A program made the translations under genes and the position numbers. From positions 41,881-105,880 of the forward strand of contig CAOTKV010000003.1 in the NCBI GenBank assembly GCA_948530865.1: 64,000 nucleotides of DNA, written 5' to 3'. The notes under the pieces are model-generated. The model did no database searches. It was not told the origin of the DNA and worked only from the letters and a program-made list of their open reading frames with translations. The number at the start of each line of letters is the position of its first letter. Positions within the stretch are counted from its first letter, which is position 1. This DNA comes from an uncultured Clostridia bacterium. GTDB taxonomy: Bacteria; Bacillota; Clostridia; TANB77; CAG-508. Below, one piece after another: positions 2,956 through 37,112 of the stretch.

Positions 2956-4710
2956 CTATTTTGTTCCCTCCACTTTTATTTCACACCTAGCATCTTTTAA
3001 ACTAAAATTTGTATTATAATATTCATCTTTAAAATCTTTCCATTTTTGATTAAATTTATCTATTTCTTCTTTAGAAATATTTTCTTTTTCAACTACGTAT
3101 ACAACTTCTACTGTTGAATTATATACAATTAACTTATTTAATTTTCTTACCTTTAGACATAAATCCACATATTTTAAACTACTTGTAAATTCATCTGAAA
3201 GACTGCTATACAAATTAGCATCTATCATCATACAAATACTAGATACTGCATTCATATTTTGAATAAGTTTTTCTCTTCCAAAATATCCATTTTTATTTTT
3301 ATCTAATCCTTCAAATAAATAGCTTACTCCATTTTCTGTTCCAACTACCATTCCAGCATTATGTGTTTTATTATCTTCATAATATACTCTTACTCCAACT
3401 ATACCAACATCTTCTCTTTGGCAGAATCCAAGCATTCTCTCAATCCAGTTTGGAGTTTTAATTCTGCAGTTTTCATCTAAAATAATTATATATTCACTAT
3501 TATTTATATTAGATTCTAAAATTTCATAATTTTTATAAGTTGTAATTGTTTTTATATTTTCTAAAACTTCTTTTGATTTATTATTTATTAAAATACCAAC
3601 TTTAGGAGTACCTTTTACATCATAATCTACAAGATATGTTCCTGAGTTTTTTCCATTTGCAACATGTCCACTTAAACCTATTCTTTTTAAATGATCCTCA
3701 ACAGCTTTCTTTCCAGCTTCTATTGCATATGGCTTAGCCTCTGATTCCATAGATGTAGAACCTTTATGCACTCTCCAATTATATAAAATTTTTGATATAT
3801 GAACAATCTTTTTTGCATTTTCAGACATTCTTAATATTAAATCATAATCTTGTGCGCCATCATATTTATTATTAAATCCACCAATTTTATCTAGTAATTC
3901 TTTTTTGAAAACACTATAATGGCAAATATAATTATTTGATCTTAATGTATCTGGTGCAAAATCTGGTTTAAAATGTGGTGCATATCTTGGCTCATCTATG
4001 AAATGGAATTTATCTTCATCTGAATATATAAAATCTACATTTTTATTTTCATTAATTACTTTAACAACTTCATATAATGCATCTAAGCTTAGCATATCAT
4101 CATGATCTAAAAGTGATATATATTTTCCAGTTGCTAGTTCCAATGCTTCATTAGTATTTCCTGAAATTCCTTTATTTTCACCTAAGAACTTGTATTTAAT
4201 TCTTTTATCTTTTTCACACATTTCTTTTATTTTAGTAAGTTCTTTTGGACTTCCATCTGCTAAACACAACTCCCAATTACTATATGTTTGGCAATGAACA
4301 CTATATAAAAGTTCTCTAAAGAAATCTGTATCAGTATTATATAAAGGTACTACTATACTAATTTTAGGTCTTATTCTAAATCTCTTTTTTGTCTGCATTT
4401 CTAGTTCTTTATCTGTAGGTTCATTTTCTTGAAGCCATTTTTCATAATCAGATAATTCATCCTCTTCAGCTCTCTTTAAATCCTTTTCATATTTTAAATA
4501 TTTCCTATGATCTATTCCTTTCCAATATTCTGCCGTTTCTTCATCTGTTAATTTAAAATAATTTTCAACTTTTTTTGTATAGTTTTTCTCAGTTTGTTTT
4601 TTATCATATTCAATTCTTCTTCTTCCGCCTGGTGGCATTATTCTATCTATAAATGATGTTCCACTAAATGGATTTATCATCCACCAAATAAATTTTAATA
4701 TTTTTTTCAT
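2956..4710 (-). CDS. GT2 glycosyltransferase with shortened second module (584 aa)
   Basis: The first module is intact (ISIVVPLYNTDTDFF, QTYSNWELCLADGS, LDHDD). The second module is reduced (KVGILINNKS...IIILDENC) and lacks about 60 aa compared with the 1015-2955 paralogue. Confidence 0.8.
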   Translation of the reverse strand: MKKILKFIWWMINPFSGTSFIDRIMPPGGRRRIEYDKKQTEKNYTKKVENYFKLTDEETAEYWKGIDHRKYLKYEKDLKRAEEDELSDYEKWLQENEPTDKELEMQTKKRFRIRPKISIVVPLYNTDTDFFRELLYSVHCQTYSNWELCLADGSPKELTKIKEMCEKDKRIKYKFLGENKGISGNTNEALELATGKYISLLDHDDMLSLDALYEVVKVINENKNVDFIYSDEDKFHFIDEPRYAPHFKPDFAPDTLRSNNYICHYSVFKKELLDKIGGFNNKYDGAQDYDLILRMSENAKKIVHISKILYNWRVHKGSTSMESEAKPYAIEAGKKAVEDHLKRIGLSGHVANGKNSGTYLVDYDVKGTPKVGILINNKSKEVLENIKTITTYKNYEILESNINNSEYIIILDENCRIKTPNWIERMLGFCQREDVGIVGVRVYYEDNKTHNAGMVVGTENGVSYLFEGLDKNKNGYFGREKLIQNMNAVSSICMMIDANLYSSLSDEFTSSLKYVDLCLKVRKLNKLIVYNSTVEVVYVVEKENISKEEIDKFNQKWKDFKDEYYNTNFSLKDARCEIKVEGTK

Positions 4711-4726
4711 CTTTACTCCAACAATT

Positions 4727-5689
4727 CTATTTTTTAAATTTATATAGTATTTTTGTAATAAAAGGCATATTTAAAATCATAAAATTCTGCATTACATATA
4801 TGAAACTTTCATATTTATAAAGTTTAAAAAATAATCCCCATTTTCTAAAATTAAAATTTTTCTTTTTTTCTAACATTTCATAGTATTGTAAAGCTTGTCT
4901 ATTTAAAATTTTAACTTTATCATCTACAAATTTTTCTTCATTTTCAATAAATACAGAAAAATGTTCTTTTTTTACTTGTATAAATAATTTTCTTATTTCA
5001 TCTATACTTTTTAATTCATCTGTTTTCTTTTTAGAACCTACCTTATTATTTTTATGTTGTCTATATTTTATAAGTGGTTCTTCTATATACGTTATTTTGT
5101 GTTTTTGACTTAGTATTAGTGGAATCCAATAATCATGCAAAATAAATTTACTTGTATTTGGAAGCGGTAAAACTTCATCTATAAGCTCTTTTTTAGAAAG
5201 CATTGTACAACCTGTTATAAAATTATTTAGATATAAACTTTCAAAATTATTGTATTTTACTATTTTTTTATAAAATCCTTTTAATTTCCAATAAGAACTG
5301 TATGTTACATTTAAAAATGAATCTACAACTTCTAAATCTGAATAAACTAAATCACTTCCAGTTTCTTCAATAACTTTTATTGATTTTTTAATCTTATTTT
5401 CATTCCAAATATCATCTTGATCTGAAAACATAAAATATTTATTTTCGACCCTTTTTAGTAAAAATTCAAAATTTTTTACAACACCCAAATTTTTCTCTTG
5501 GCTAAAAACTATTATTCTTTTATCTTTTTCTACATATTCTTCTAAAATTTCTTTTGTTGAATCTGATGAACAATCATCAGAAATTATTAATCTAAAATTA
5601 GAATATGTTTGACACATTATGCTATCTAATTGTTCTCTTAAATATTGTTCCCCATTATATGTTGCAAGTAATATATCAACCTTTTCCAT
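4727..5689 (-). CDS. Single-module GT2 glycosyltransferase, rhamnosyltransferase-like
   Basis: 320 aa. The N-terminus VDILLATYNGEQYLREQLDSI..QTY..ISDDCSSD resembles RgpB/WbbL-type rhamnosyltransferases. This is recalled from memory, not searched. Confidence 0.7.
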   Translation of the reverse strand: MEKVDILLATYNGEQYLREQLDSIMCQTYSNFRLIISDDCSSDSTKEILEEYVEKDKRIIVFSQEKNLGVVKNFEFLLKRVENKYFMFSDQDDIWNENKIKKSIKVIEETGSDLVYSDLEVVDSFLNVTYSSYWKLKGFYKKIVKYNNFESLYLNNFITGCTMLSKKELIDEVLPLPNTSKFILHDYWIPLILSQKHKITYIEEPLIKYRQHKNNKVGSKKKTDELKSIDEIRKLFIQVKKEHFSVFIENEEKFVDDKVKILNRQALQYYEMLEKKKNFNFRKWGLFFKLYKYESFIYVMQNFMILNMPFITKILYKFKK

Positions 5690-5713
5690 AATATATTTTA
5701 AATCCTCTTTATC

Positions 5714-7966
5714 TTATTTTCTTATAATTCCTTTTATCTTTTTGGCTAATTTCCAAATTGCTGTATTTTGAGTTTTTTCAAATCTCTCTACCAAATATTG
5801 ATGACTATCAATATATTGTTTCTGATTTTTTATTTCTTCATCTTTAATTTTAAGTATTGTTCTTAAGTCTTCTAAATCATTTTTATCTTGCATTTTTTGA
5901 ATACTTGATGTATTTATAACCTTATTTTTTATATCAGAACAATTATTATATAAATCTAAGTATTCCTCTTGCATCTTTTCAACCTTTTTAAATTGATAAT
6001 TTTTAAAATTTTCTATAATTTTATTATATTCTTTATCATTAACAACTTCTTTTATTTTGCTAATGATAACATCTGTATCTTTTGTAACTGGGATTGTCCA
6101 TCCTAATTTATCTTTTTTTAGTCTATCTCCAACAGCTCCAATATCAAATGCTAAAATTGGAATACCTGCCATATAAACTTCTGATAAAGTGTATGAATAA
6201 GTTTCTGGCCAAACTGTAAGCATACATACTAAATTTATATTGTTTTCTACTAATAAATTAGATAATTCTCCTCTATTATATTGACCATGAAAAATATAGT
6301 TTGGTGCGTTTTCAGCTAATTTTTCATCAAATGTTTTTCCAAATAAATGAATTGTTATATTGTCATCATTTTTTTTAATTAATGATTTTAAAATTTCACT
6401 TCCTTTTTGTACTGCCATAGCTCCAACAAAAGCTATATTTATATTACTATTTTCTTTTTTATCTTCTTTTTTTACATCATAAATTTCAACACCATGTTCT
6501 ATAACTTTAATATTTAAATCTTTATAAAATTTATTTACAATTTTTTGTGTATTATCAGAAGGTACTATTATTGTACTAGATTTTGAAAGGTTCTTATTAC
6601 AATTTTCTCTCCAAGAATCTATAATATCTTCTGTTATATTATATTTATCTAAAATACAATCTTTGCAGTTTTTAGAATCTTCACAATATGTACCTTTATA
6701 AACCATATTTATTGCTGGACACATTGTATATAAATCATGTAAAGTAGTAATTATGTGAGCATTATATTTTTCAGCCATTTCATAAATATCAAATGTTTGA
6801 AATAATAAATGATGTATATGTACTATATCAAAATTAAATGCTGTAAATAAACTATTTAAAAATTCTCTATATGATTGATTTGAATATCTTAAATTACTAT
6901 AAAACTTTTTATCTGTTTTTATACTATAAATTAATCTTCCAATATCTTTTGTATATAAATACACTTCCATTCTTGAAATTTCATTATAGTTTGGACAAAT
7001 AACAAAACACGCATAATTATTTTCTACTAAATTTGTTAGTACATCTTTTATATGAAGTGATGTTCCACCAGTCATCTCCATATTTTCATTCCATTCATTT
7101 ACAAAAAAAGCTATTCTTTTTTTACTAAAAAGTTTAATATTAATTCTTATATTATCATGAATATCTCTCATCATATTAGATGCCATATATTCATTTAACT
7201 TTTCTATATAAAATGGATATCTTTCTGCTAATATTTTTGTATGACTTTCAATTAATTCTTTTTTACTATTTGTTAGATTTTCTTTTTTAAAAGATTGAGT
7301 TCCTTTATGATATATAAATGTATTATCACAAATTATATTTATATACCCATGATTTAAAGCTCTATAACAGAAATCATTTTCCTCGCCATATCCTTTTCCA
7401 AATGTTTCTTCATCAAACAATCCTATTTCATTTAAAGCTTTTCTTTTTATAAATAAGCAAAAACCGTTTCCTGTTGGTATTTCTGGAAATTTATTTAATG
7501 AACATTTTTCAATTAAATTTGCATACTCTTCTAAAGTAATATTTTCTGGAATTTCATTATCTTCTCCAAAGTTTGGGACAGATGCTATTGTGCCATTATT
7601 AGTAAGTGGAGTAACTGTTGCTATATATTCATTTGAATATGCTGAATCATATATTTTTTCAAGCCATCTGCTTGTTACTTCTGTATCACTATTTAGAAGT
7701 ATTACATCATTTTCTGGAAATTCTCTCATTCCAATATTTACAGATTTTACAAATCCATAATTTTTATTATTATTAATAACCATTATATTTTTATATTCAT
7801 TTTTATACTTATTAAGCATTGGCAGGATTTTTTCATCAGGACTACAATCATTAATTAATATTAAATTATTTTCTTCTAAATTTGTATATTTAATTACAGA
7901 TTTTATACAGCTTTCAGTATATTCATAAGCATTGTATATTGGAATAATGATATTTACTTTTTTCAT
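5714..7966 (-). CDS. Bifunctional GT2 (N-terminal) plus GT4 (C-terminal) glycosyltransferase with C-terminal coiled-coil tail
   Basis: 750 aa. GT2 motifs: VNIIIPIYNAYEY, LNSDTE. GT-B/GT4 motifs: IAFVGAMAVQKG, WPETYSYTLSEVYMAGIP. The last ~100 aa are heptad-rich (KNDLEDLRTILKIKDEEIKNQKQYID). It is a paralogue of 12656-14983. Confidence 0.8.
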   Translation of the reverse strand: MKKVNIIIPIYNAYEYTESCIKSVIKYTNLEENNLILINDCSPDEKILPMLNKYKNEYKNIMVINNNKNYGFVKSVNIGMREFPENDVILLNSDTEVTSRWLEKIYDSAYSNEYIATVTPLTNNGTIASVPNFGEDNEIPENITLEEYANLIEKCSLNKFPEIPTGNGFCLFIKRKALNEIGLFDEETFGKGYGEENDFCYRALNHGYINIICDNTFIYHKGTQSFKKENLTNSKKELIESHTKILAERYPFYIEKLNEYMASNMMRDIHDNIRINIKLFSKKRIAFFVNEWNENMEMTGGTSLHIKDVLTNLVENNYACFVICPNYNEISRMEVYLYTKDIGRLIYSIKTDKKFYSNLRYSNQSYREFLNSLFTAFNFDIVHIHHLLFQTFDIYEMAEKYNAHIITTLHDLYTMCPAINMVYKGTYCEDSKNCKDCILDKYNITEDIIDSWRENCNKNLSKSSTIIVPSDNTQKIVNKFYKDLNIKVIEHGVEIYDVKKEDKKENSNINIAFVGAMAVQKGSEILKSLIKKNDDNITIHLFGKTFDEKLAENAPNYIFHGQYNRGELSNLLVENNINLVCMLTVWPETYSYTLSEVYMAGIPILAFDIGAVGDRLKKDKLGWTIPVTKDTDVIISKIKEVVNDKEYNKIIENFKNYQFKKVEKMQEEYLDLYNNCSDIKNKVINTSSIQKMQDKNDLEDLRTILKIKDEEIKNQKQYIDSHQYLVERFEKTQNTAIWKLAKKIKGIIRK

Positions 7967-7975
7967 TAAATTCTC

Positions 7976-9718
7976 CTATAATAATTTTTTATTAAGTCCT
8001 TTTAATATTTTGAAAAATCTCTTATTTTCAAAATCATCTATTAAAGCATCTTTTTGTTTTATATCTTCTTCTAATTCTTTTTGTTTTTGAAGTAGCTGTT
8101 CTATTTCATTTGTTTTTTCTTGAAGATTGCTTTTTATCTCTTCAATATAATTTTCTTTTTTAGTATTTTCAGCTTTATATAAACCTAATTCTTCTCTACA
8201 TTTATCAAGTTCTAATATATGCTTTGATATTTCTTCTCTTGCTTCTAAAAGCTTATTATTATAATATTCAAATTTACCTTTTGGTTTATATAATTTCATT
8301 ATTTGATTATCTATTACATAATCTTGAAATTCTTGCTCTATTTGCTTAAAATATTCAATATATTGTGAAATTTTTAATTTTCTAAACATTTCATCTATAT
8401 TTATTTTATTTGAAATTTCTGAATTATATATATACATATTATTTATAGAACGATAAATAATAAACTCTAATGGTAAGTTTTCCAAACACCATTCTTGATC
8501 AAAAAATACAAATTTTCCATCTATATAAAATGTATTTTCAAAGACTAAATCTAGATAAAGTTTTTTCACATAAAATAATTCTTCGTTTTCTTTAACTCTT
8601 TGATTTTTTAATTTATCTTTTATTTCTTCATACCATTTATTTATAAGTTCTAATGCAGATTCAATATTTCCACTCATTATCTCATCTACCAATACTTGAT
8701 TAAATGGATTACTATTAATGTATTTTGAATAAATAGTTTCATTTTCTTTAAATTCATCTATAACTTCAAATCCTAAGTTTCTTAGTTCTTGCGCATTATT
8801 TTTTATATTATATATATGTTTTTTTGATTCTGGTAATATAGATTCTTTAATTACATAATCTTCATAAATTTTTGTACATAATCTAAAATCAACTTTTCTA
8901 GCATTATTAAATCCAATAAATTTTTCTGTTGATTTTGGATTTATTTCAACTATATATGAATTAGTAAAATACTTGAATAATCCCTCTTTTGTTGCATATT
9001 TTAATAATTTGAGTTCATCAATCCCAGATTCATCTTCATTATTTACAATTGAATTATTCATTATTTTTGTATTGTTATATTTAGGAATATATTTATCTGA
9101 AAATATAACATTTGCATTATAATAGTTTGGTAGTGGATAAAATATTCTATAATTTTTACCAACTAATTTATTTTCTATTTCTGCATGTGTAAATGTATTT
9201 TCTCTTTGTTTTTCTAAGTTTGAAACTCCAAATTTATTGTTTAAAAATAATAATATAGTTCCATTTTCATTTAAGAATTTTTGAACTTTTTCTAAATATT
9301 CTAAATTATCTTTTATTATAATATAATCAAACTTTTCTTCTAATTCTATTTCATCAAAATTATTTGCAGATATAACTATAATGTTTTCCTTATCTTTATA
9401 TCTTATTGAAATTGCTTCTGCCTTATATTTATTTGATTCTATACACACAAGCTTTTTCACCTTAGAAGAAATACTACCAGTAATCTCTCCAAAACCTGCA
9501 TTTAATTCTAATACTTTAGAATCTTTTTCAAAATTATACCAATTAATACAATTTGCTCTATTGCTTAATAAGCTTTGAATCTTTTCATATTCATCACTAT
9601 CTTTTAAATATTTTTCATATTCATTTGCATCATATTTTTTGATATAATTTTCAACTATATCTTCTTCTAGAATACTTCTAAAATTATTACTTTCATACTT
9701 ATCTAAAATTGTTTTCAA
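7976..9718 (-). CDS. Methyltransferase / kinase-like / coiled-coil protein (WbdD-like architecture), putative chain terminator
   Basis: 580 aa with no TM segment. SAM motif I is VLELNAGFGEITG. A kinase-like catalytic loop YLDLVFEN (D-x4-N) is followed by FFDQEW. The C-terminal ~85 aa is a heptad-rich K/E/Q segment. Confidence 0.6.
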   Translation of the reverse strand: MKTILDKYESNNFRSILEEDIVENYIKKYDANEYEKYLKDSDEYEKIQSLLSNRANCINWYNFEKDSKVLELNAGFGEITGSISSKVKKLVCIESNKYKAEAISIRYKDKENIIVISANNFDEIELEEKFDYIIIKDNLEYLEKVQKFLNENGTILLFLNNKFGVSNLEKQRENTFTHAEIENKLVGKNYRIFYPLPNYYNANVIFSDKYIPKYNNTKIMNNSIVNNEDESGIDELKLLKYATKEGLFKYFTNSYIVEINPKSTEKFIGFNNARKVDFRLCTKIYEDYVIKESILPESKKHIYNIKNNAQELRNLGFEVIDEFKENETIYSKYINSNPFNQVLVDEIMSGNIESALELINKWYEEIKDKLKNQRVKENEELFYVKKLYLDLVFENTFYIDGKFVFFDQEWCLENLPLEFIIYRSINNMYIYNSEISNKINIDEMFRKLKISQYIEYFKQIEQEFQDYVIDNQIMKLYKPKGKFEYYNNKLLEAREEISKHILELDKCREELGLYKAENTKKENYIEEIKSNLQEKTNEIEQLLQKQKELEEDIKQKDALIDDFENKRFFKILKGLNKKLL

Positions 9719-9738
9719 ATTTTATCTCCTTTACAAAG

Positions 9739-10527
9739 TTACCAAATCTCTAAGGCACTTTTACTATTTTCTTCTGTATCTTCATTTTCAGCTATTTTAG
9801 GTTTTACTTCTTTTTCTATTTTTTGCCTTATTTCGTTTTTAGTTTCTTTTCCACCATTAAACAAAATTGCTTCTACATCAAATTGATCTTTATCATTTTC
9901 TAAAAATATATTGGCATTTTTTTCATCAACACCATTAAACAAAATTACATTTTTAAATGTATTATCTATTTTTAAAATCGCTCTTTGATCTGATAATTCG
10001 TTACTATTTGTATCATTAATTTCAAGAGGTGTTATATAAAAATTATCAAAATAGTATTCTGCTCTTCTTCCCATTTCAGTAGTTTGCTCTCTATATTTTC
10101 CAAGTGTTATAGTTTCTATATTAGTTTTCATTTTTTCTTTTTCTTGCTCACTTAAATTTAATTTATTAAACCACTCATCTTTATAATTTAAATTATGCAA
10201 AATATTATTTATTTGAATTTCTGAATTTTCATTTTTAATTATTTCAGATAAAGCCCCTATTCTATCTGATTCTGGTGATGTTGTTATCCACGCTGTAACT
10301 AAATTATTATGTTCTTTTATTATTTCTTTTAAATTATCAACATTATTACTATCTCCGCCATCTACTATAATTAGATTATTTTGTATTGTTGTTATCACAT
10401 AACCATTTTTTCCTAATACAGTAACATTTATTTTATTATTATATCTTGTTTTCATTCCTAAGTATGTACATAAGCAAATTACTACTATTATAAGGAATGT
10501 AATAAATACTTTCTTTTTTCTACTCAT
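9739..10527 (-). CDS. Membrane-anchored protein with a degenerate metallo-beta-lactamase-like fold
   Basis: 262 aa with an N-terminal TM (VFITFLIIVVICLCTYL). LIIVDGGDS...AWITTSPESDRIGAL aligns by eye to the MBL/ComEC motif ILIDGG...THPHxDHIGG, but the His ligands are replaced. Confidence 0.4.
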   Translation of the reverse strand: MSRKKKVFITFLIIVVICLCTYLGMKTRYNNKINVTVLGKNGYVITTIQNNLIIVDGGDSNNVDNLKEIIKEHNNLVTAWITTSPESDRIGALSEIIKNENSEIQINNILHNLNYKDEWFNKLNLSEQEKEKMKTNIETITLGKYREQTTEMGRRAEYYFDNFYITPLEINDTNSNELSDQRAILKIDNTFKNVILFNGVDEKNANIFLENDKDQFDVEAILFNGGKETKNEIRQKIEKEVKPKIAENEDTEENSKSALEIW

Positions 10528-10539
10528 ACTTTATCCTTT

Positions 10540-11841
10540 CTAATTTTTAGAAAATTTCTTTATTGAAATATTTGAATTTAATCTTATAATTCCTACTGCA
10601 TTTTTAGTTGTAATAACATCTATTAATAAAGCATCATATTTTCTATTTAAAACTTCAAGTTCACCTTGCAAATTGTATTTTGTGCAACTAAAAGATAATG
10701 TATATTTTCCTGCTGTAAGTGGTATTTTTTGTCTAAATTCTACTACTACAATATCTCCTTTTTTATAATCTCCAGTTAACACTTTTTCAATATCTGTATT
10801 TGTTCCAGCAAGAGTTGTACCTTGAAAATCTTTTACTGTCATTGTAAATATAGGGTCACTAACATCTTGATTGAATTTTATTTTTGATTTCATTATTACT
10901 TCATCATTATTATCAAAAGCATTTATTGGTCTGTTTTTTACATCAAACATACCATAATCTATTACTTCTGCACGTTTGTCTCCATATTCTGTGATATTAG
11001 GATTTTGAACAAAGTTATGTTTCCAATCATCTAAATTCTCCTCACTTGAAGATACTACTGAAGTAATATTTTCTTCTTCTTTTTCTTCTTGTGTTTCATC
11101 ATCTGCAATTCCAACCATTATTTTTTTGTACTTTTCAACACCATCTTTTATATCACCATCATATATCTTTTTACCTTGTTCTAAAATAATTGCTCTTGTA
11201 CAATTTTTTAAAATGTCACCAACACTATGACTTACAAAAAGAATTGTTTTTCCTTCTTTTTTAAATTGTTCAAACTTTTTAAAACATTTTAATTGAAATG
11301 CCATATCTCCAACTGATAAAACTTCATCTACTATTAAAATATCTGGTTCAACATTTATTGCACAAGCAAATGCTAGTCTTGCAAACATACCTGAAGAATA
11401 AGTTTTTACAGGTTGGTATAAGTGATCACCTATATCTGCAAAATCAATTATTTCTTGTTTCTTTTCTTCAATTCTTTCATTTGACAATCCCATTACTTGT
11501 CCATGTTGATAGATGTTTTCAAGACCTGTTAAGTCTGGATTGAAAGCTGCTCCAAGTTCAAGTAGTGAACTTACTTTTCCATTTATACTAATTTCTCCAC
11601 TTGAAGGAATAACAACACCTGTAACAATTTTTAGCAAAGTAGATTTTCCTGCACCATTTTTACCTAAAATACCAACTACTTCACCTTTTTTTATTTCTAA
11701 ATTTAATCCGTCTAAAGCTTTAAACGTGCTATGTTTTTTTATTTTAGTAGGAAACATTGCTTCTACTAATCTATCTTTTTTATTAGCAAACATTTTATAT
11801 TCTTTAGATAAATTATTAATTTTTATCATTGTTTCGCTCAT
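10540..11841 (-). CDS. Polysaccharide ABC transporter ATP-binding protein (Wzt/TagH-type) with extra C-terminal domain
   Basis: 433 aa. Walker A GKNGAGKST, signature YSSGM, Walker B ILIVDE. An acidic linker leads to a ~160-aa C-terminal domain (EYGDKRAEVIDYGMFD...GKYTLSFS) resembling Wzt_C. Confidence 0.85.
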   Translation of the reverse strand: MSETMIKINNLSKEYKMFANKKDRLVEAMFPTKIKKHSTFKALDGLNLEIKKGEVVGILGKNGAGKSTLLKIVTGVVIPSSGEISINGKVSSLLELGAAFNPDLTGLENIYQHGQVMGLSNERIEEKKQEIIDFADIGDHLYQPVKTYSSGMFARLAFACAINVEPDILIVDEVLSVGDMAFQLKCFKKFEQFKKEGKTILFVSHSVGDILKNCTRAIILEQGKKIYDGDIKDGVEKYKKIMVGIADDETQEEKEEENITSVVSSSEENLDDWKHNFVQNPNITEYGDKRAEVIDYGMFDVKNRPINAFDNNDEVIMKSKIKFNQDVSDPIFTMTVKDFQGTTLAGTNTDIEKVLTGDYKKGDIVVVEFRQKIPLTAGKYTLSFSCTKYNLQGELEVLNRKYDALLIDVITTKNAVGIIRLNSNISIKKFSKN

Positions 11842-11855
11842 AATCTACTCCCTTT

Positions 11856-12644
11856 TTATAATACATCTGCAAAATCTTTTTTGTTCTTTTTAAATACAGA
11901 ATTTCCCCATACAAACATCAATATTGTAACTACCCAGAATATTATTGTGAACAAAAAGTTATGTTCTGTTATAATAGTTGAACTTGCAATAAATGCTTGT
12001 CTAAATCCTTCTACTAAATATGTGAATGGAAATGCTTTAAATATACTAGAAAGCCATCCATCAAGCATAGTTAAATTCCATATTATTGGTGTAAACCACA
12101 TACAAAGTTGTATAAGAATATTTAGTAAATTTGCAAAATCTGGAACAACTGTTGTAAGTGCTGAAGTAAATCTTGTTAAAGCAATAATAAAACATAATGC
12201 ACAAAAGATTATATAAATTATATTTAAAATGTTTGGGAAATATCCAAAAACAGTTGCTGCCATAGTAGCTATAAATACTAAAAATACGCCAATACAACTT
12301 GAAGATATTATTGATATTATTGGGATAATATCTACTGGAAATACAACTTTTTTTACTAAATAACTATAATTTCTTATTGAATTACTTGCCATTAAAATTG
12401 CATCACTTATAAACATCCACATACTCATTCCTGGTAAAAACCACACAACATATGGATATTTACCTGAACTTCCTGTTTTTAATATATATTGAAATACAAT
12501 TACATATGTAAGCATAAACACAAATGGTTGTGCAAATCCCCATAAGCTTCCTAAACTTGTACTTGCAAATTTATTTCTAAAATCATTTTTTCCAAGTTGA
12601 AATGCTAATTTTCTATTATTATATAATGTTTTAAAAAATTCCAT
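11856..12644 (-). CDS. ABC-2 type polysaccharide export permease (Wzm/TagG-type)
   Basis: 262 aa with about 6 hydrophobic helices. It lies directly upstream of the ATPase, in the typical wzm-wzt order. Confidence 0.85.
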   Translation of the reverse strand: MEFFKTLYNNRKLAFQLGKNDFRNKFASTSLGSLWGFAQPFVFMLTYVIVFQYILKTGSSGKYPYVVWFLPGMSMWMFISDAILMASNSIRNYSYLVKKVVFPVDIIPIISIISSSCIGVFLVFIATMAATVFGYFPNILNIIYIIFCALCFIIALTRFTSALTTVVPDFANLLNILIQLCMWFTPIIWNLTMLDGWLSSIFKAFPFTYLVEGFRQAFIASSTIITEHNFLFTIIFWVVTILMFVWGNSVFKKNKKDFADVL

Positions 12645-12655
12645 TTTTCCTCCAA

Positions 12656-14983
12656 TTAAAGTTTTATGAATTTTATTTTTTCTAGTAATTTTATTCTTTT
12701 TGATGATAATATTTTATTATATTTTTCTTCATCTTTCATCATATTACCAATTCTTTTGTTTAATCTATCAATTTCTTCTCTTAGCAATTTGACTGTTGTA
12801 TCATATTCAACAATTCTTTGGTTATGGCTTGCTCTTTCTATGTTTAATTGATTAATTAAATCAGAATTGTCTACTGTTACTTTTTTTTCTGGTACTACTT
12901 TTAATATTTCTTTTAATAAATCTTTATTTAAGCTTTCAAAATTTGATTTATTTGAAATTAATTTATTATAAATTTCTTTATATTCATTTGCATTTTCAGA
13001 AACTGATTTTAAGTTATTCAAATAATTATTTACGCTTTCAAAAACTTCATCATATTCTTTTTTATTTTCAAAAATTTCATTTATTTTATTAATTATTTCT
13101 TCTACTGATGAATCTTTTTTTATTATCCAACCTAAATTATCTTTTTGAACTCTTTCACTAACAGCTCCATAATCTAAAGCAATTACTGGTACTTTAGCAG
13201 TTATAGCTTCTGTAAGTGTATAAGAATATGTTTCATGCCAAATTGAAAGCATACATACTAAATCTATATTATTTTCTTCTAATAGTTTTGTAATATCTTC
13301 TCTATTATATAAACCATGATATATATAGTTTCTTGAAGATTTATTTAAAGTGCATTCTGATGTTGTTCCAAACATATGAACATTAAATTTTAATTCATCA
13401 AAATTTGCTTTTTTTACAAATTCACTTAAAATATCTACACCTTTTTGTTTATTTATTCCACCAATAAAAGCTATATTTTTCTTATCATGTTTTTCTTTAT
13501 CTCTTTTTGATTCTTTGTAATCTACACCATGTTCTACTACTTGTATTTCTATATCTTTATAATATTTGTTAAAAATCTCTTTTGTAGAATTAGATGGTGC
13601 AACTAAAAGTTTTGCTTTTCTTAGTGCATTATATACATTATTTCTCCATTTTTCAATAATATTACCATCTACATCAATCAATTCTTTTAAACATTCACTA
13701 CAATTACATTCTTTATTATCTACACAACATTTTTCATTTTTTTCAAGTAATACAATTGATGGACATACCATATAAAAATCATGTAATGTCATCATAAATG
13801 GAATTTTCTTTTCTTCTAAAACATCAAATAAATCAAAATAATGATTTTTTAAATGATGAACATGTACTAAATCAACATCAACAATTGAAAATATTTTTTC
13901 AATTAATTTTTTATAATCATTATTAAATAAATTAATATTTTCAAATGAATTTATTTTTCCTAAAAATACTTCTGAAATTGAATCTTCAAAAAATGATTTT
14001 AATTTATAACCACACTCACTATAATAACAAACATGAATATTTAATTCTTCTCTTAAATTATCTATTAAATCATATATGTGAAGTGCAGTTCCACCAACTA
14101 ACTTATTATCTCTTGAAACAAAATCATGTACAAATATTAAAATATTTTTTCTATGTTTATTATTTATATAATATTTAATATTATCTTGTATATATTTGAA
14201 TGGATTTGTATTTACTATTAAATTAGTTTGAGCAAAATTTGTAGGATATTTTTCTTCTAATATTTTTAAATGTGAATTAACAAGTTCAAGTTTTTTTTCT
14301 GTAAAAGACTGAGTACCTTTATGATAGATAAATGTATTATCACACATTAAATGAACAAAGCCTTTTTTTACACATCTATATGAAAAATCATTTTCTTCTC
14401 CATATCCTTTTTCAAAAGTATCATCATCAAAAAGTCCTACTTCATTTATAGCATTTCTTCTAATATACATACAAAAACCATGTGCTGTTGATATTTCTGG
14501 AAAATCATTAAAACTACATTTTTCAATTTCATCTGCATACTCTTCTAAAGATATAAAACTTGGTAAATTATTTTCCTCTAAAAAATTAGGAATTGATGCA
14601 AGAGTTGCATTATTAGAAAGTGGTGTTACACTTGCTACATTTTCTCTTGAATATGCAACTTCACTTAATTTTTCGATCCAATTTTTTGTTACTTCTGTAT
14701 CGCTATTTAATAAAATAACATCATTATCAGAATAGCTCATACCTCTATTTACTGTTTTTACAAATCCTGAGTTTTCTTCATTTTCTAACACTATAATATT
14801 TAGTTCTCTATTTTTCTCTTTAACATCATTTAATAATGGCATAATTTTTTTATCTGGACTCTTGTCATTTATTAATACTAAATTATGTTCCTTTAAATTT
14901 GTGTTTTCAATAATTGTTTCTATACATTTTTTAGTAAAATCATACGCATTATATATTGGTATTATTATATCTAATTTCTTCAT
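12656..14983 (-). CDS. Bifunctional GT2 plus GT4 glycosyltransferase with C-terminal coiled-coil tail
   Basis: The track ORF extends to 15007. The ATG at 14983 (MKKLDIIIPIYNAYDF) has the SD AAGGGG 7 nt upstream and avoids overlap with the upstream ORF. GT2 motif LNSDTE; GT4 motifs IAFIGGINKQKG and WHETYSYTLTEAITAKVP. The tail is NQRIVEYDTTVKLLREEIDRLNKRIGNMMKDEEKYNK. Confidence 0.8.
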   Translation of the reverse strand: MKKLDIIIPIYNAYDFTKKCIETIIENTNLKEHNLVLINDKSPDKKIMPLLNDVKEKNRELNIIVLENEENSGFVKTVNRGMSYSDNDVILLNSDTEVTKNWIEKLSEVAYSRENVASVTPLSNNATLASIPNFLEENNLPSFISLEEYADEIEKCSFNDFPEISTAHGFCMYIRRNAINEVGLFDDDTFEKGYGEENDFSYRCVKKGFVHLMCDNTFIYHKGTQSFTEKKLELVNSHLKILEEKYPTNFAQTNLIVNTNPFKYIQDNIKYYINNKHRKNILIFVHDFVSRDNKLVGGTALHIYDLIDNLREELNIHVCYYSECGYKLKSFFEDSISEVFLGKINSFENINLFNNDYKKLIEKIFSIVDVDLVHVHHLKNHYFDLFDVLEEKKIPFMMTLHDFYMVCPSIVLLEKNEKCCVDNKECNCSECLKELIDVDGNIIEKWRNNVYNALRKAKLLVAPSNSTKEIFNKYYKDIEIQVVEHGVDYKESKRDKEKHDKKNIAFIGGINKQKGVDILSEFVKKANFDELKFNVHMFGTTSECTLNKSSRNYIYHGLYNREDITKLLEENNIDLVCMLSIWHETYSYTLTEAITAKVPVIALDYGAVSERVQKDNLGWIIKKDSSVEEIINKINEIFENKKEYDEVFESVNNYLNNLKSVSENANEYKEIYNKLISNKSNFESLNKDLLKEILKVVPEKKVTVDNSDLINQLNIERASHNQRIVEYDTTVKLLREEIDRLNKRIGNMMKDEEKYNKILSSKRIKLLEKIKFIKL

Positions 14984-14984
14984 T

Positions 14985-16391
14985 TTAGTTCCCCTTATTT
15001 TCTTCAACTTTTTCTTTTAAAAATATTGGTTTTAATAAAACTGTTGATGTTACAACTTGTATCATTATTACTCTTGTATAATATCTGATAAATGATGCAG
15101 CAAATATTGCTTCACCTCCAAATACAAATATATAACATAATATTAAAAATGCAATATTAACAAGAATAGCTCCTAGTGCAATTACAACATACAATTTATC
15201 TTTTTTATCTAATTTATAATAAGTTATAAACATTGAGCCACTTATTATTCCCATTAATAAAACTACTGCATTATCTTTATAAAATTGAATTGTTATATTT
15301 TGCATTAAAGACAAAAAATATTCTAAATGCATTTCTACTTTTGAACCTGCACCAAATAATAATTCTGTTGGAAAATGTGCTAAGTTATTATAAATTTTCC
15401 AACTAATAGGTACTATTAGTATAGTAATAATATAAATTATTACTGATTTTGCTTTTAATTTTTCTATATTTAATTTTTTATAAAATATTGCAATAATAAT
15501 TAACACAAAAATATTATAAGCAACTAAAAATGTTCCATCTTGTTTGCACCAACATGCACCAATTGTATTTACCATAGAAATTATCATATTTTCAATTTTT
15601 CTATCATATATAATCCATTCAATAAAATATAATATTCCACAAGTATATAAAACCATAAATGGAACATCACCATATGTTGAACTTGCATAACATCCAAAAT
15701 TATAACAATATTCATATACTATAAGTATAAGCAAAAGTGCTACATTAATATTTGCTTTTCTTTTTTTGCATAAGCCCATAATATTTAATAGATTAATTAT
15801 TAAAAATATTCCCGAAAAAATTCTTATAAAATTTTCTTTTATACCATCTATTAATACATAAAAACCTGAATATAATAGTGGTAATCCATTCGGATAATTT
15901 TCTAATCCTGTATTTATAAAGAAATCCATTTTCTTTCCAATAAATATATTCTTTGCATTTAATGCCCATACTGAAAATTCATCTATAAATACTAATTTAT
16001 TTGAAACAGCAACTCCTATAAAATATACAATATACACTATATTTGCACATAATAAAATTGCTGTTACTGCTTTTCTTAATTTACTTGTTTCAATCTTTTC
16101 TTTTTCTTGTTTTTTAGGTTTATTTTTTATAAAATAATAAATTCCATATACTATATTAAATATTAATCCAGCTACAATTGGAATAAAAATATATCTTTCA
16201 TATTTAATTCCAATTAAGCCTATTAAATACATATACAATGTAAATATTATTATTCCACTTGTTAATACTATTGATACTACCTCTATTTTTAATAAATTTT
16301 TAATTTGAAATAAACTTAATTTATTAAGCAAAATTATAAAATTTATTCCAATAGATATTAATAATATCAGATATATTGCTAACATTATCAT
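14985..16391 (-). CDS. Polytopic membrane protein, possible GT-C fold glycosyltransferase or polymer-modifying enzyme
   Basis: 468 aa with at least 10 hydrophobic segments. The loop motif FIDEFSVWALNAK is reminiscent of the acidic first-loop motif of GT-C enzymes. No firm family assignment. Confidence 0.4.
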   Translation of the reverse strand: MIMLAIYLILLISIGINFIILLNKLSLFQIKNLLKIEVVSIVLTSGIIIFTLYMYLIGLIGIKYERYIFIPIVAGLIFNIVYGIYYFIKNKPKKQEKEKIETSKLRKAVTAILLCANIVYIVYFIGVAVSNKLVFIDEFSVWALNAKNIFIGKKMDFFINTGLENYPNGLPLLYSGFYVLIDGIKENFIRIFSGIFLIINLLNIMGLCKKRKANINVALLLILIVYEYCYNFGCYASSTYGDVPFMVLYTCGILYFIEWIIYDRKIENMIISMVNTIGACWCKQDGTFLVAYNIFVLIIIAIFYKKLNIEKLKAKSVIIYIITILIVPISWKIYNNLAHFPTELLFGAGSKVEMHLEYFLSLMQNITIQFYKDNAVVLLMGIISGSMFITYYKLDKKDKLYVVIALGAILVNIAFLILCYIFVFGGEAIFAASFIRYYTRVIMIQVVTSTVLLKPIFLKEKVEENKGN

Positions 16392-16394
16392 AAT

Positions 16395-19491: not shown

Positions 19492-19510
19492 AAATATTCC
19501 TCCATATTTT

Positions 19511-21319: not shown

Positions 21320-21323
21320 ACTT

Positions 21324-33619: not shown

Positions 33620-34591
33620 TTATTTCATTAAATATTCTGGATGTGCAATATACCAATCTATTGTTTTAACAATTCCATCTTTAAACATTGTTTTTGGTTC
33701 CCATCCAAATTCATTTTTTAATTTTGTAGGATCAATTGCATATCTGTAATCATGTCCTTTTCTATCTTCAACATGTGAAATTAAAGTTTCTGGTTTTCCA
33801 AGTCTTTCTAATATTAATTTTACAATTTCAATATTTCTCTTTTCATTGTGCCCACCAATATTATATCTTTCACCTTTTTTACCTTGATGTAAAATTATAT
33901 CAATTGCTTCACAGTGATCTTCAACAAATAGCCAATCTCTAATATTTAATCCTTCTCCATAAACTGGTAATGGTTTATCTTGAAGAGCTAAAGAAATCAT
34001 GTGTGGTATTAATTTTTCATGATGTTGATATGGTCCATAGTTATTTGAGCAGTTTGTTACACTTACATTCATTTTAAATGTTTCTGCATATGCAAACGCT
34101 ATTAAATCTGAAGATGCTTTTGATGCTGAGTATGGGCTATTTGGTTGAATTGGAGAAGTTTCTGTAAAATATCCTGTTTCTCCAAGTGTTCCATATACTT
34201 CATCTGTTGAAACATGTACAAATTTATTTGTACTACCTTCTCCCCAGAATTGTTTAGCAACTTCTAATAATGTATGTGTTCCAATTACATTTGTATGTGT
34301 AAATATAAATGGATTTTTAATACTATTATCAACATGAGATTCTGCTGCAAAGTGAACAACCGCGTCTATATCATATTTTTTGTATGTTTCCATTACAAAA
34401 TCGAAGTCACATATATCACCTTGTACAAATGTTATTTTATCTTTTATTGCATCTAAGTTATGAATATTTCCTGCATATGTTAATTTATCAAATACAATTA
34501 TATTGTATTTTCCTTCGTATTTTTTTACCATTAATTCTGCAAAGTTAGCTCCTATAAATCCTGCAGCGCCTGTTACTAAAATATTTTTCAT
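33620..34591 (-). CDS. rfbB: dTDP-glucose 4,6-dehydratase
   Basis: 323 aa. ILVTGAAGFIGANF, a YSASKASSD catalytic motif, and an RmlB-like overall layout. Confidence 0.9.
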   Translation of the reverse strand: MKNILVTGAAGFIGANFAELMVKKYEGKYNIIVFDKLTYAGNIHNLDAIKDKITFVQGDICDFDFVMETYKKYDIDAVVHFAAESHVDNSIKNPFIFTHTNVIGTHTLLEVAKQFWGEGSTNKFVHVSTDEVYGTLGETGYFTETSPIQPNSPYSASKASSDLIAFAYAETFKMNVSVTNCSNNYGPYQHHEKLIPHMISLALQDKPLPVYGEGLNIRDWLFVEDHCEAIDIILHQGKKGERYNIGGHNEKRNIEIVKLILERLGKPETLISHVEDRKGHDYRYAIDPTKLKNEFGWEPKTMFKDGIVKTIDWYIAHPEYLMK

Positions 34592-34602
34592 ATTTATTCT
34601 CC

Positions 34603-35187
34603 TTATTTTAAATTCTTAAATAAATCTGTTTTCTTTAATTCTTCTAAAGTTGGCCAAAGTCCATCTTTTTCAGAAGTTAAATAATCTTCAGGTTTCATTC
34701 CTGGAACTTCTGGCCATACAATTCCAATTTCTGGATCATTCCATTTTAATCCACCTTCTGCACTATGATTATATACATCATCACATTTATAACTAAATTC
34801 TGCTTCATCTGATAATACTAAAAATCCATGTGCAAATCCTCTTGGTATCATAAACATTTTTTTATTTTCTTCAGAAAGAATAACGCCTTCCCATTTACCA
34901 TATGTTTTACTTCCTGGTCTTAAATCAACTGCAACGTCAAATACTTCACCTTTTATACATCTAACAAGTTTGGCTTGAGTATTTTCTTTTTGGAAATGTA
35001 GCCCTCTTAAAACTCCTTTTTTTGATTTTGATTGGTTATCTTGTACAAATTCATTTGTAATTCCAATTTCAGCAAAATCTGGTTTACTATATGTTTCCAT
35101 AAAGTAACCTCTGTTATCTCCAAAAACTGTTGGTTCAATTACATAAACACCATCAATTGAAGTATCTATTCTTTTAAATTTTCCCAT
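34603..35187 (-). CDS. rfbC: dTDP-4-dehydrorhamnose 3,5-epimerase
   Basis: The track ORF starts at a TTG at 35205. The ATG at 35187 (MGKFKRIDT) has the SD AAGGAAG upstream. FGDNRGYFMETY and LRGLHFQ are RmlC motifs. Confidence 0.9.
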   Translation of the reverse strand: MGKFKRIDTSIDGVYVIEPTVFGDNRGYFMETYSKPDFAEIGITNEFVQDNQSKSKKGVLRGLHFQKENTQAKLVRCIKGEVFDVAVDLRPGSKTYGKWEGVILSEENKKMFMIPRGFAHGFLVLSDEAEFSYKCDDVYNHSAEGGLKWNDPEIGIVWPEVPGMKPEDYLTSEKDGLWPTLEELKKTDLFKNLK

Positions 35188-35270
35188 TTTTATTCTTCCT
35201 TTCAAAAATTATTTACTATATTTTTATATCAAAAAAAATTACTTTTTTCAATACTATACCTAAAATTTAA

Positions 35271-35290
35271 GCTGTAAAAAATTTTACAGC
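35271..35290 (-). terminator. Stem-loop terminator after rfbA
   Basis: GCTGTAAAA, loop AA, then TTTTACAGC. It lies 30 nt downstream of the rfbA stop on the minus strand. Confidence 0.5.
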
Positions 35291-35320
35291 TTGAATTTTA
35301 ATATTTCATTTGGACATACA

Positions 35321-36238
35321 TTAATTTGCATTAAATAAATCGCTTTCATATATTTCTCTATATTGTTTATAATCTTGCTCTGCAATTCTTTTTAAATATT
35401 TTCCATATTCTGTTTTCTTATATTTTTCTGCTTCAACTAATAAATCTTCTTTTGAAATCCATTCATTTCTATATGCAATTTCTTCTAAACAAGCAATTTG
35501 TGTACCTTGTCTTAATTCTATTGCTTTTACATAGTCTGAAGCATCTGATAATCTGTCTGCAGACCCTGTATCAAACCAAGCATATCCATTTCCAAGAGGA
35601 ATAACTTGTAATTTTCCATTTTCCATATATACTCTATTAACATCTGTAATTTCTAATTCTCCTCTTTCAGATGGTTTAATAGATTTTGCAATTTTAACAA
35701 CTTCATTATCATAAAAATAAATTCCAGGAACAGCAAAGTGTGATTTTGGATTTTCAGGTTTTTCTTCTATTGATAAAGCTTTTCCTGTTTTATCAATTTC
35801 AACAACACCGTAAGATGTTGGATCTGCAACTTGGTAACCAAAAATAATTCCACCTTCTTTTAAATTACTTGCAGCTTTTAAAACTCTCTCTACTCTTGAA
35901 CCATAAATCATGTTGTCTCCTAAAATTAAAGACACATTATCATTTCCAATAAAATCTTCTCCAAGTATAAAAGCATCAGCTAAACCTACTGGTTTTTCTT
36001 GTACTTTGTATTCTAACTTCATTCCAAATCTTGAACCATCGCCTAATAAATTTTTAAATGCTGGTAAGTGAACTGGAGTAGAAATTATTAAAACTTCTCT
36101 AATTCCAGCCATCATTAATGTAGATAATGGATAATAAATCATTGGTTTATCATATACTGGTAACATTTGTTTTGAAACTGCTAATGTTATCGGATATAGT
36201 CTTGTGGCACTACCACCTGCTAATATAATACCTTTCAT
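35321..36238 (-). CDS. rfbA: Glucose-1-phosphate thymidylyltransferase
   Basis: 305 aa. The N-terminus MKGIILAGGSATRLYPIT..SKQMLPVYDKPMIYYPLS is a classic RmlA N-terminus. Confidence 0.9.
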   Translation of the reverse strand: MKGIILAGGSATRLYPITLAVSKQMLPVYDKPMIYYPLSTLMMAGIREVLIISTPVHLPAFKNLLGDGSRFGMKLEYKVQEKPVGLADAFILGEDFIGNDNVSLILGDNMIYGSRVERVLKAASNLKEGGIIFGYQVADPTSYGVVEIDKTGKALSIEEKPENPKSHFAVPGIYFYDNEVVKIAKSIKPSERGELEITDVNRVYMENGKLQVIPLGNGYAWFDTGSADRLSDASDYVKAIELRQGTQIACLEEIAYRNEWISKEDLLVEAEKYKKTEYGKYLKRIAEQDYKQYREIYESDLFNAN

Positions 36239-36251
36239 TATTTTATTCCTC

Positions 36252-37112
36252 CTATTTTAATTCTTCTTTTAAATAATTTGCTAATGCATCTTCCCATTTA
36301 CTTGGTATGATGTTAACGCTTTTTAATTTTTCTTTTGATAACATACTATTTTTTGGTCTATCTGATGAAGCTGGATTCATTTCTTTATATTCTTCAGAAG
36401 TTACAGGATGTACTTTTGTTTTTCTTCCTGCTAATTCCATTATTTTTACAGTAAAATCATACCATGTTGTAAATCCTTCATTTGTTGAATGATATACTCC
36501 ATAAGCTGGTTCTTTTTCCATTATTTGTTCTATTATTTCACATAATGTTGTTGTAGAAGTTGGGCTCCCGTGTTGATCACATACAACTTTTAATTCGTCA
36601 TGTGTTTCTGAAAGTTTTAACATTGTTTTTACAAAGTTCTTTCCTCCTAAGCCATAAAGCCAAGCTGTTCTTAAAATATAATATTTCTCAGCTTTTGCTG
36701 CATTTTCTTCTCCAATTAATTTGGTTTTTCCATATGCACTTATAGGTCCAGGAATCATATCTTCTGTATATATTTTTTCTACATCTAATTTTCCATCAAA
36801 TACATAATCTGTACTAATATGAATAAATGTACTATCATTTTCCTTAGCAGCTTCTGCAATATTGGCAACTGCTAGTCCATTTACACTATTTGCTAAATCA
36901 TAATTTACTTCACAACCATCAACATTTGTATATGCTGCACAGTTTATAATATAATAAGGACTTACTTCTTTTGCTTTTGCAAGTACTGCATCTCTATCTG
37001 TAATATCTAATGTTTGTAAAGTTGTTCCTACTACTTCATATTTTTTTTCTAATCTTTCTCTTAATTCTCCTCCAAGCATTCCATCTGCTCCGATTAATAA
37101 AACTTTTTTCAT
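36252..37112 (-). CDS. rfbD: dTDP-4-dehydrorhamnose reductase
   Basis: 286 aa. LLIGADGMLGGEL, NCAAYTNVDGCE, YGKTKLIGE. Confidence 0.9.
   Translation of the reverse strand: MKKVLLIGADGMLGGELRERLEKKYEVVGTTLQTLDITDRDAVLAKAKEVSPYYIINCAAYTNVDGCEVNYDLANSVNGLAVANIAEAAKENDSTFIHISTDYVFDGKLDVEKIYTEDMIPGPISAYGKTKLIGEENAAKAEKYYILRTAWLYGLGGKNFVKTMLKLSETHDELKVVCDQHGSPTSTTTLCEIIEQIMEKEPAYGVYHSTNEGFTTWYDFTVKIMELAGRKTKVHPVTSEEYKEMNPASSDRPKNSMLSKEKLKSVNIIPSKWEDALANYLKEELK

Follow-up and report, generated by a model that had tools for sequence, protein, structure and literature searches.

Export-coupled chain termination is well worked out in the O antigens of Gram-negative bacteria and barely in the wall polysaccharides of Gram-positive bacteria, and methyl-phosphate capping has been described to date only for Gram-negative O antigens. 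In the terminator WbdD, a methyltransferase (residues 1-210) is followed by a eukaryotic-type kinase closest to Src (residues 211-459, with D351, N356 and D369 as its kinase residues) and a coiled coil (residues 460-708), and the WbdD of Escherichia coli O8 ends chains with methyl alone (PMC3482155). ORF6 of Klebsiella pneumoniae O7 (ORF6-O7; Kelly et al., J Biol Chem 2024; PMC11231755) carries an N-terminal methyltransferase, an 'unannotated' 223-residue domain which resembles the amicoumacin kinase AmiN, and a coiled coil, and turns a repeat-unit mimic into the 3-O-phosphate and then the 3-O-methyl-phosphate on the terminal rhamnose (Rha), with the product formed in vitro being mostly phosphorylated and only partly methylated. 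The D441A substitution abolishes phosphorylation in vitro, and the authors describe the methyltransferase-kinase pair as unlike WbdD in both sequence and predicted structure, give a coiled coil plus membrane tip as characteristic of terminators, and report orthologues in alpha- and gamma-proteobacteria and cyanobacteria, some of which stop after the coiled coil (PMC11231755). Here we describe a 580-amino-acid (aa) protein encoded in a 64,000-nucleotide (nt) stretch of DNA from an uncultured Clostridia bacterium (contig CAOTKV010000003.1; the whole stretch is referred to as the window). On sequence comparison, its closest characterised relative is K. pneumoniae O7 ORF6-N, making it a distant member of that terminator type, and we assign a probability of roughly 0.7 to the reading that it is a chain terminator which caps a Wzm/Wzt-dependent cell-surface glycan with methyl-phosphate in uncultured low-GC gut Clostridia.

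The gene and its parts are as follows.

7976..9718, minus strand: terminator gene with methyltransferase, kinase-like and coiled-coil regions, 580 aa, candidate glycan chain terminator (open reading frame (ORF) list, Shine-Dalgarno, AlphaFold2 (AF2) model, homologues)
9089..9718, minus strand: class I S-adenosylmethionine (SAM)-dependent methyltransferase domain, residues ~1-210 (profile against PDB, Foldseek, hhalign, column conservation)
8279..9016, minus strand: atypical protein-kinase-like domain, residues ~235-480 (invariant columns, domain model, Foldseek, hhalign)
8024..8275, minus strand: continuous 84-residue heptad helix, residues 482-565, coiled-coil spacer and candidate molecular ruler (AF2, heptad statistics)
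7979..8020, minus strand: cationic amphipathic C-terminal helix, residues 567-580 (RFFKILKGLNKKLL), candidate membrane anchor (AF2, hydrophobic moment)

A search of 5.8 billion proteins returned 212 relatives of the 580-aa protein, mostly 480-630 aa in length, metagenomic and without names, with the family alignment used throughout comprising 91 homologues (30-88% identity to the query, mean column identity 26%). A hidden Markov model (HMM) of this alignment matched nine ORF6-O7-family sequences, transcribed from the machine-read Supplementary Information (SI) Figure 9 of PMC11231755, with scores of 49-93 bits (E values of 1e-12 to 1e-25, computed for a Z equal to the size of the PDB search), compared with 32 bits for the best methyltransferase when the same model was run against the PDB. 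Alignment of the Clostridia and ORF6-O7 families with hhalign gave a probability of 99.85% and an E value of 8e-31 over 350 columns, pairing query residues 43-396 (methyltransferase, 43-210, continuing into the kinase-like domain, 210-396) with residues 60-439 of ORF6, at an identity between the Clostridia protein and ORF6-O7 of about 19% over aligned columns. The motif YLDLVFEN is paired with FIDAVPQN, placing D390 at the position of the validated D441 of ORF6-O7, and E94 falls on its SAM-binding E112, with G91 of ORF6-O7 equivalent to the non-conserved N73. The prediction of a methyl-phosphate cap, originally drawn from WbdD, thereby stands on better grounds, as the ORF6-O7 relative makes a methyl-phosphate cap.

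The only invariant columns in the 91-homologue alignment are R274, K291, D390, N395, F397, D407, Q408, E409 and W410. By position, K291 represents the beta3 lysine, D390-x4-N395 the catalytic loop, and D407 of FFDQEW the DFG-equivalent, with 99 residues from K291 to D390, 5 from D390 to N395, and 12 from N395 to D407; this spacing of beta3 Lys, D-x4-N loop and DFG Asp is as in protein-kinase-like enzymes. The AF2 model of the full protein (predicted local distance difference test score (pLDDT) 91.6, predicted template modelling score (pTM) 0.81) shows, over residues ~235-480, an N-lobe made up of a sheet and a helix, together with a C-lobe of helices. As Foldseek results for the full-length model are dominated by methyltransferases, residues 215-480 were modelled separately (pLDDT 87.8), and all of the top 50 PDB matches of this isolated domain (E 1.5e-5 to 2e-3, probability 0.96-1.00) are protein-kinase-like folds, comprising Rio1/Rio2, Bud32, the macrolide (MPH), aminoglycoside (APH(2'')) and capreomycin (Cph) phosphotransferases, LicA choline kinase, methylthioribose (MTR) kinase and homoserine kinase. 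Neither WbdD nor Src is among these 50, and the 580-aa protein has no Pfam APH or Pkinase match even at E <= 1. On the models, the middle domain is a divergent, atypical kinase-like member of the protein-kinase-like (PKL) fold superfamily.

The N-terminal domain forms an alpha/beta Rossmann-type fold up to approximately residue 210 of the AF2 model. Matches to Pfam Methyltransf_11/25 are weak, and the 91-sequence family profile matches methyltransferases among PDB sequences with E values down to 3e-7, with Foldseek of the full AF2 model returning class I methyltransferases at a probability of 1.0. Motif I lies at residues 69-81, E94 is located at the end of beta2, and the pocket residues N56, W60, Y61, D131, Y132 and N161 are nearly invariant across the alignment. 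The sequence of motif I (residues 71-77, window ~9488-9508) differs between families, with a consensus of LEIG-x-(N/D)-x-GE in the Clostridia proteins, LELNAGFGE in the protein from the window, and the canonical LEIGAGCGA in the proteobacterial O7 family.

C-terminal to the kinase-like domain, residues 482-565 are modelled as a single unbroken helix, containing no proline and one glycine, in which a single heptad register places hydrophobic residues at 67% of a/d positions, compared with 40% in shuffled sequences and reached by none of 2000 shuffles (p<0.0005). A short terminal helix follows at residues 567-579, and the last 14 residues, RFFKILKGLNKKLL, have a hydrophobic moment of 0.62 and a net charge of +5. 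Across the alignment, the stretch C-terminal to the kinase domain ranges from 0 to 209 aa (median 91), and the C-terminal 14-mer carries a charge of at least +3 in 76 of the 91 homologues; on sequence grounds, a tail of varying length with a retained cationic tip would look like the pattern expected of a variable spacer with a membrane-binding tip. The original prediction had read a class I methyltransferase, a kinase-like fold and a heptad-rich segment from the translation, and each of these is borne out by the profile, structural and periodicity results above, including the middle domain, for which another fold had been the outcome to fear.

Translation of the 580-aa ORF starts at a TTG codon, with an AAAGGAG Shine-Dalgarno sequence ~8 nt 5' of the start and a gap of 20 nt from the stop codon of the upstream gene, and the N-terminus is considered real because a homologue with 88% identity aligns over 100% of the protein's length. 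The GC content of the gene is 20.4%, compared with 25.8% for the window. The motifs quoted previously lie at exactly the residues given, with VLELNAGFGEITG at 69-81, YLDLVFEN at 388-395, FFDQEW at 405-410 and the K/E/Q/L-rich stretch at 491-566, and the earlier numbering of D390, N395 and D407 is likewise exact. No transmembrane segment is present, in line with the earlier reading, with the top 19-residue Kyte-Doolittle mean being 0.78. Pfam, NCBIfam and PDB sequence searches with the single 580-aa sequence gave only sub-threshold methyltransferase matches at ~57-190, and Pfam/NCBIfam matches to Intein_splicing, DUF948, PspA and FlbB were rejected as spurious, reflecting low-complexity or coiled-coil composition. 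A plasmid search with the terminator locus gave no match.

Relatives of the terminator are encoded by at least 208 genomes in a scan of GTDB with one genome per species, and the best 80 of these 208 are nearly all uncultured gut Clostridia from animals and humans, together with some Lachnospiraceae, Oscillospiraceae and Paenibacillaceae, the closest (87% identity) being encoded by a Clostridia metagenome-assembled genome from mouse gut. Among 1.84 billion cluster representatives (protein clusters at 50% identity), a profile built from the kinase-like domain alone matched 2336 proteins at E <= 1e-3, of which 1501 reached E <= 1e-10, with the domain starting nearly always at residue ~170-290 and therefore following a methyltransferase-sized N-terminus. 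The large Clostridia/Bacillota family to which the protein belongs lacks a Pfam model. Several of the matches are 1150-1490 aa in length, and those scanned, including P0187, P0211, P0221, P0227 and P0202 (1300-1490 aa), fuse the methyltransferase and kinase-like unit to RgpF (rhamnan synthesis protein F), WbsX and GT2 glycosyltransferase modules. By analogy, these five appear to be single-polypeptide terminator-polymerases of a format similar to K. pneumoniae ORF6-O7 and WbbB, and the fusions point to rhamnose polymers.

In the window, the terminator gene lies within a same-strand run of tightly spaced genes (1015-17969), of which the following, together with the more distant rml genes, are central to the argument.

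10540..11841, minus strand: Wzt, ATP-binding cassette (ABC) transporter nucleotide-binding subunit with a C-terminal carbohydrate-binding module (CBM; Wzt_C), presumed cap reader (Pfam ABC_tran 1.1e-22, Wzt_C 3.8e-34)
11856..12644, minus strand: Wzm, ABC-2 permease of the glycan exporter (Pfam ABC2_membrane 4.3e-16)
5714..7966, minus strand: 750-aa GT2 + GT4 dual-module glycosyltransferase, candidate polymerase (Pfam Glycos_transf_2, Glyco_transf_4, Glycos_transf_1)
12656..15007, minus strand: 783-aa GT2 + GT4 dual-module glycosyltransferase, second candidate polymerase component (Pfam; heptad-rich cationic C-terminus)
33620..37112, minus strand: rmlB, rmlC, rmlA and rmlD, dTDP-L-rhamnose synthesis, possible donor supply (Pfam GDP_Man_Dehyd/Epimerase, dTDP_sugar_isom, NTP_transferase, RmlD_sub_bind)

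The best PDB match of Wzt, in which the CBM occupies residues ~284-421, is Aquifex Wzt (8dku/7k2t, 9e-71). Rather than lying mainly outside glycan loci, an outcome which the original prediction had held against itself, the homologues have a Wzt CBM gene within 10 kb in 74 of 83 related loci, on the same strand in 74/74 and upstream in 70/74, and a Wzm homologue is present in 73 of the 83. Of the nine loci where a CBM homologue was not found, four end at a contig end just upstream. Three further homologue loci, checked singly, all contain Wzm, Wzt (Wzt_C), the terminator homologue and GT2-GT4 enzymes. One related locus (L003) encodes, directly after wzt (6759-7940), a methyltransferase of 393 aa as a gene of its own, which matches Pfam methyltransferase models strongly, and, three genes further on, the 486-aa family member P0080 (10001-11461), which has no precomputed Pfam methyltransferase match; this may represent a split or duplicated terminator arrangement.

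Domain folds, invariant catalytic residues, homology to ORF6-O7-N and conserved linkage to a CBM-bearing Wzt are thus observed. On the WbdD and ORF6-O7 paradigms, we infer capping by kinase and then methyltransferase, a stop to polymerisation, reading by the Wzt CBM and spacing by the coiled coil, with the chemistry, acceptor sugar, reaction order, membrane binding, oligomeric state and ruler function likewise deduced. With its cationic amphipathic C-terminal helix as an anchor, and oligomerised through the 84-residue coiled coil, the terminator would act on the cytoplasmic side of the membrane. Using the gamma-phosphate of ATP, the kinase-like domain would phosphorylate a hydroxyl on the terminal sugar at the non-reducing end of a growing lipid-linked polymer, with D390 as putative catalytic base, N395 and D407 binding Mg2+, and K291 binding the phosphates. 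The acceptor sugar is probably L-rhamnose, a guess made because of the rml genes in the window, the RgpF fusions of relatives, and the action of the O7 enzyme on Rha. The SAM-dependent methyltransferase would then methylate the phosphate, yielding a methyl-phosphate cap which may both stop elongation by the neighbouring GT2-GT4 polymerases and serve as an epitope for the Wzt CBM, such that only capped chains are exported. By holding the capping sites away from the membrane-proximal polymerase, the coiled coil may set a minimum chain length, acting as a ruler.

The two GT2-GT4 enzymes carry C-termini similar to that of the terminator. In the 750-aa enzyme, a heptad segment is followed by the cationic amphipathic tail IWKLAKKIKGIIRK (...AIWKLAKKIKGIIRK), with a hydrophobic moment of 0.75 and a charge of +6, and the heptad-rich C-terminus of the 783-aa enzyme ends in the cationic tail ...KRIKLLEKIKFIKL, with a charge of +5. 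The likeness of these sequences suggests that the three proteins could co-assemble via their coiled coils and share membrane anchoring. Between wzt and the terminator gene lies a further conserved ORF.

9739..10527, minus strand: 262-aa conserved accessory ORF (N-terminal hydrophobic segment)

This ORF has no Pfam match at E <= 0.1, and its sole similarity in the PDB is a non-significant one to metallo-beta-lactamases (E about 2.5). Homologues are found in 40 of the 83 related loci, and most of them occupy the equivalent place, with wzt and the terminator gene about 900-1000 nt apart. The ORF may encode an accessory part, as yet undescribed, of the module for export and termination. A more elaborate reading, which we hold to be possible yet somewhat unlikely, is that gut Clostridia cap an ABC-exported, probably rhamnose-rich wall glycan with methyl-phosphate and set its length with a three-protein assembly, in which the terminator and both GT2-GT4 polymerases would each contribute a coiled coil and cationic tip to a hetero-oligomeric coiled coil, which would serve as the ruler in place of that of the terminator by itself, and the 262-aa membrane protein would be an added, undescribed checkpoint component.

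The rest of the glycan genes in the window are listed below.

1015-5689, minus strand: three GT2 glycosyltransferases (Pfam)
14985-16391, minus strand: ORF of 468 aa lacking Pfam domains, which shares 23 nt at its 3' end with the start of the 783-aa glycosyltransferase gene (Pfam scan)
16395-17969, minus strand: Acyl_transf_3 acyltransferase (Pfam)
21324-22676, minus strand: Wzy_C protein (O-antigen ligase/polymerase-like), second glycan set
27647-28573, minus strand: ATP-grasp protein, second glycan set
28573-29208, minus strand: PglC-like Bac_transf, second glycan set
30347-31426, minus strand: radical SAM/SPASM enzyme, second glycan set
31638-33524, minus strand: PglF-like dehydratase, second glycan set
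38720-40003: GlmU-like hexapeptide/nucleotidyltransferase, adjoining the Methyltransf_3 gene
40075-40728, minus strand: stand-alone Methyltransf_3-type O-methyltransferase (1.9e-28), at the edge of the glycan super-locus

A homologue of the 468-aa ORF was found only in the closest related locus (L004). The second set of glycan genes adjoins the ABC-dependent one on the minus strand (18493-33524), with an epimerase, a DUF6077 protein, a GT4 enzyme, a FemAB/GNAT-like protein and a DegT aminotransferase also among its members, and may provide a primer or adaptor, or constitute a separate glycoconjugate pathway. The Methyltransf_3 enzyme could be the source of another methyl decoration. The remainder of the window is housekeeping chromosome.

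Several points weigh against assignment of the 580-aa protein as a methyl-phosphate terminator. The function of the protein and of its Clostridia relatives is predicted from sequence and models. Motif I of the methyltransferase is degenerate, with N73 at the usual site of the first Gly, and 63 of the 91 family members carry N or D in place of the second Gly; as these glycines are partly replaced, SAM binding is predicted and not assured. The kinase-like domain shows modest template modelling (TM)-scores of 0.3-0.44 to known kinases and has no obvious alphaC Glu, with the near-invariant H301 there instead. The comparison with ORF6-O7 stops before the DFG-equivalent, the transcribed sequences containing optical character recognition errors and ending just after the catalytic loop. 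Furthermore, the immunoglobulin (Ig)-like CBM found at the junction of kinase and coiled coil in ORF6-O7 is absent from the Clostridia protein, in which the C-lobe helices (to ~477) of the AF2 model run straight into the helix starting at residue 482, with no beta-sandwich; this module is not treated as defining by the authors of the ORF6-O7 study (PMC11231755). Five of the 83 related loci have upstream sequence present but no detectable Wzt CBM. To our knowledge, a methyl-phosphate-capped glycan has not been reported from a Gram-positive organism. A literature search for Gram-positive methyl-phosphate terminators or glycans found none, with one bioinformatic survey of terminators and Wzt CBMs (Mann et al., Glycobiology 2019) being outside its reach.

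Of the competing explanations, the one which survives best, although we consider it unlikely, retains the role in termination and changes the cap, which would be O-methyl only, with the kinase-like domain serving in acceptor binding or as a scaffold, phosphate only, with a degenerate methyltransferase, or phosphate and methyl on separate hydroxyls. The poor conservation of motif I, the methyl-only termination by O8 WbdD (PMC3482155), the partial methylation by ORF6-O7 in vitro (PMC11231755), and the occurrence in locus L003 of a stand-alone methyltransferase by wzt together with a family member are all in keeping with such a cap. In contrast, the pocket residues of both domains are nearly invariant over 91 sequences, arguing that both are catalytic, and the only two characterised terminators with methyltransferase and kinase, WbdD-O9a and ORF6-O7, both make methyl-phosphate (PMC3482155, PMC11231755).

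Distinctly less probable is a decorating enzyme, which would place phosphate or methyl-phosphate along the chain or on another envelope molecule and have no role in termination or export. Whilst the locus does encode other modifiers (Acyl_transf_3 and Methyltransf_3), and the terminal position of the predicted modification is itself deduced, decoration is opposed by the tight linkage to a cap-reading Wzt_C, conserved over 74 of 83 loci, by an architecture of coiled coil plus membrane tip that is characteristic of terminators (PMC11231755), by the fusion of relatives to polymerase glycosyltransferase modules across a coiled coil, and by homology to the proven terminator ORF6-O7. A resistance or RNA-modifying protein, in which an Erm/KsgA-like rRNA methyltransferase is fused to an APH/MPH-like drug phosphotransferase, is suggested by weak NCBIfam ksgA and Erm matches, Pfam RrnaAD matches of some homologues, the database name 'rRNA adenine N-6-methyltransferase family protein' and the macrolide, aminoglycoside and capreomycin phosphotransferases among structural neighbours of the middle domain, however it has almost no probability and is rejected on scores and context, with ksgA reaching 21.5 bits (cut-off 171) and Erm 19.9 bits (cut-off 212), the O7 terminator match (up to 93 bits by HMM; hhalign E 8e-31) far exceeding that of any rRNA methyltransferase, about 90% of loci having a glycan export operon as their setting, and a coiled coil and membrane tip which have no role in such enzymes.

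Termination of an exported glycan with methyl-phosphate thus remains the preferred reading. The mechanism is already known, and what is new is the phylogenetic reach of the terminator type, with the gene tying the proven K. pneumoniae O7 type to a large Clostridia/Bacillota family. If the reading is true, gut bacteria would possess surface glycans capped with methyl-phosphate, which may matter for recognition by host lectins and antibodies, and chain length in gut Clostridia would be controlled by coiled-coil ruler logic. The assignment would also correct annotations such as 'rRNA adenine methyltransferase family protein' and 'hypothetical protein'.

Compared with Rio1/Rio2, Bud32, APH(2''), macrolide phosphotransferases and LicA, the kinase-like domain has the same bilobal fold, beta3 Lys, D-x4-N loop and Mg-binding Asp, at an identity of only 8-15% and the modest TM-scores given above. 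In contrast to these enzymes, the Clostridia domain forms one polypeptide with a methyltransferase and a coiled coil, and is found in a glycan-export context.

The likeness to WbdD (E. coli O9a / K. pneumoniae O3; PDB 4AZS, 4AZW, 4UW0) put forward in the original prediction holds for architecture and fails for sequence. The order of methyltransferase, kinase and coiled coil is the same and the domains are of similar size, both proteins have a D-x4-N motif plus a downstream Asp (D390/N395/D407 compared with D351/N356/D369), the membrane-associating C-terminus after the coiled coil of WbdD has a counterpart in the candidate anchor of the Clostridia protein, and both have a CBM-bearing Wzt as partner. 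WbdD structures are the only ones in the PDB which Foldseek aligns with the full model across both catalytic domains (about 485-576 columns, E about 1e-7), with global TM-scores of only 0.20-0.28 because the domain orientation differs. However, no WbdD chain was found in PDB sequence searches at E <= 10 with the 91-sequence profile, nor in that with the single sequence, and as these searches yield only generic methyltransferases, membership of the WbdD family is rejected. Unlike in WbdD, the kinase-like domain is closest to the Rio, Bud32, APH and choline-kinase types, and the coiled coil is shorter, at 84 residues compared with a C-terminal region spanning 460-708. WbdD is therefore an architectural analogue only.

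The Clostridia protein differs from ORF6-O7 in lacking C-terminal GT2 polymerase modules, in the partial replacement of its motif I glycines, and in its host, a gut Clostridia bacterium (Bacillota), such that its product would be no lipopolysaccharide O antigen if the host has no outer membrane. In common with ORF6-O7, it has the order of methyltransferase, kinase-like domain without a Pfam model, and coiled coil, and an ABC-transporter glycan locus, in which the Clostridia Wzt carries a CBM; like some ORF6-O7 orthologues, it ends after the coiled coil. The two also share the signatures LEIG..G.IT, N..G..YFAG, PLP(D/N)Y, NS(F/Y)L, RK..Y and (F/Y)(I/L)D.V..N.

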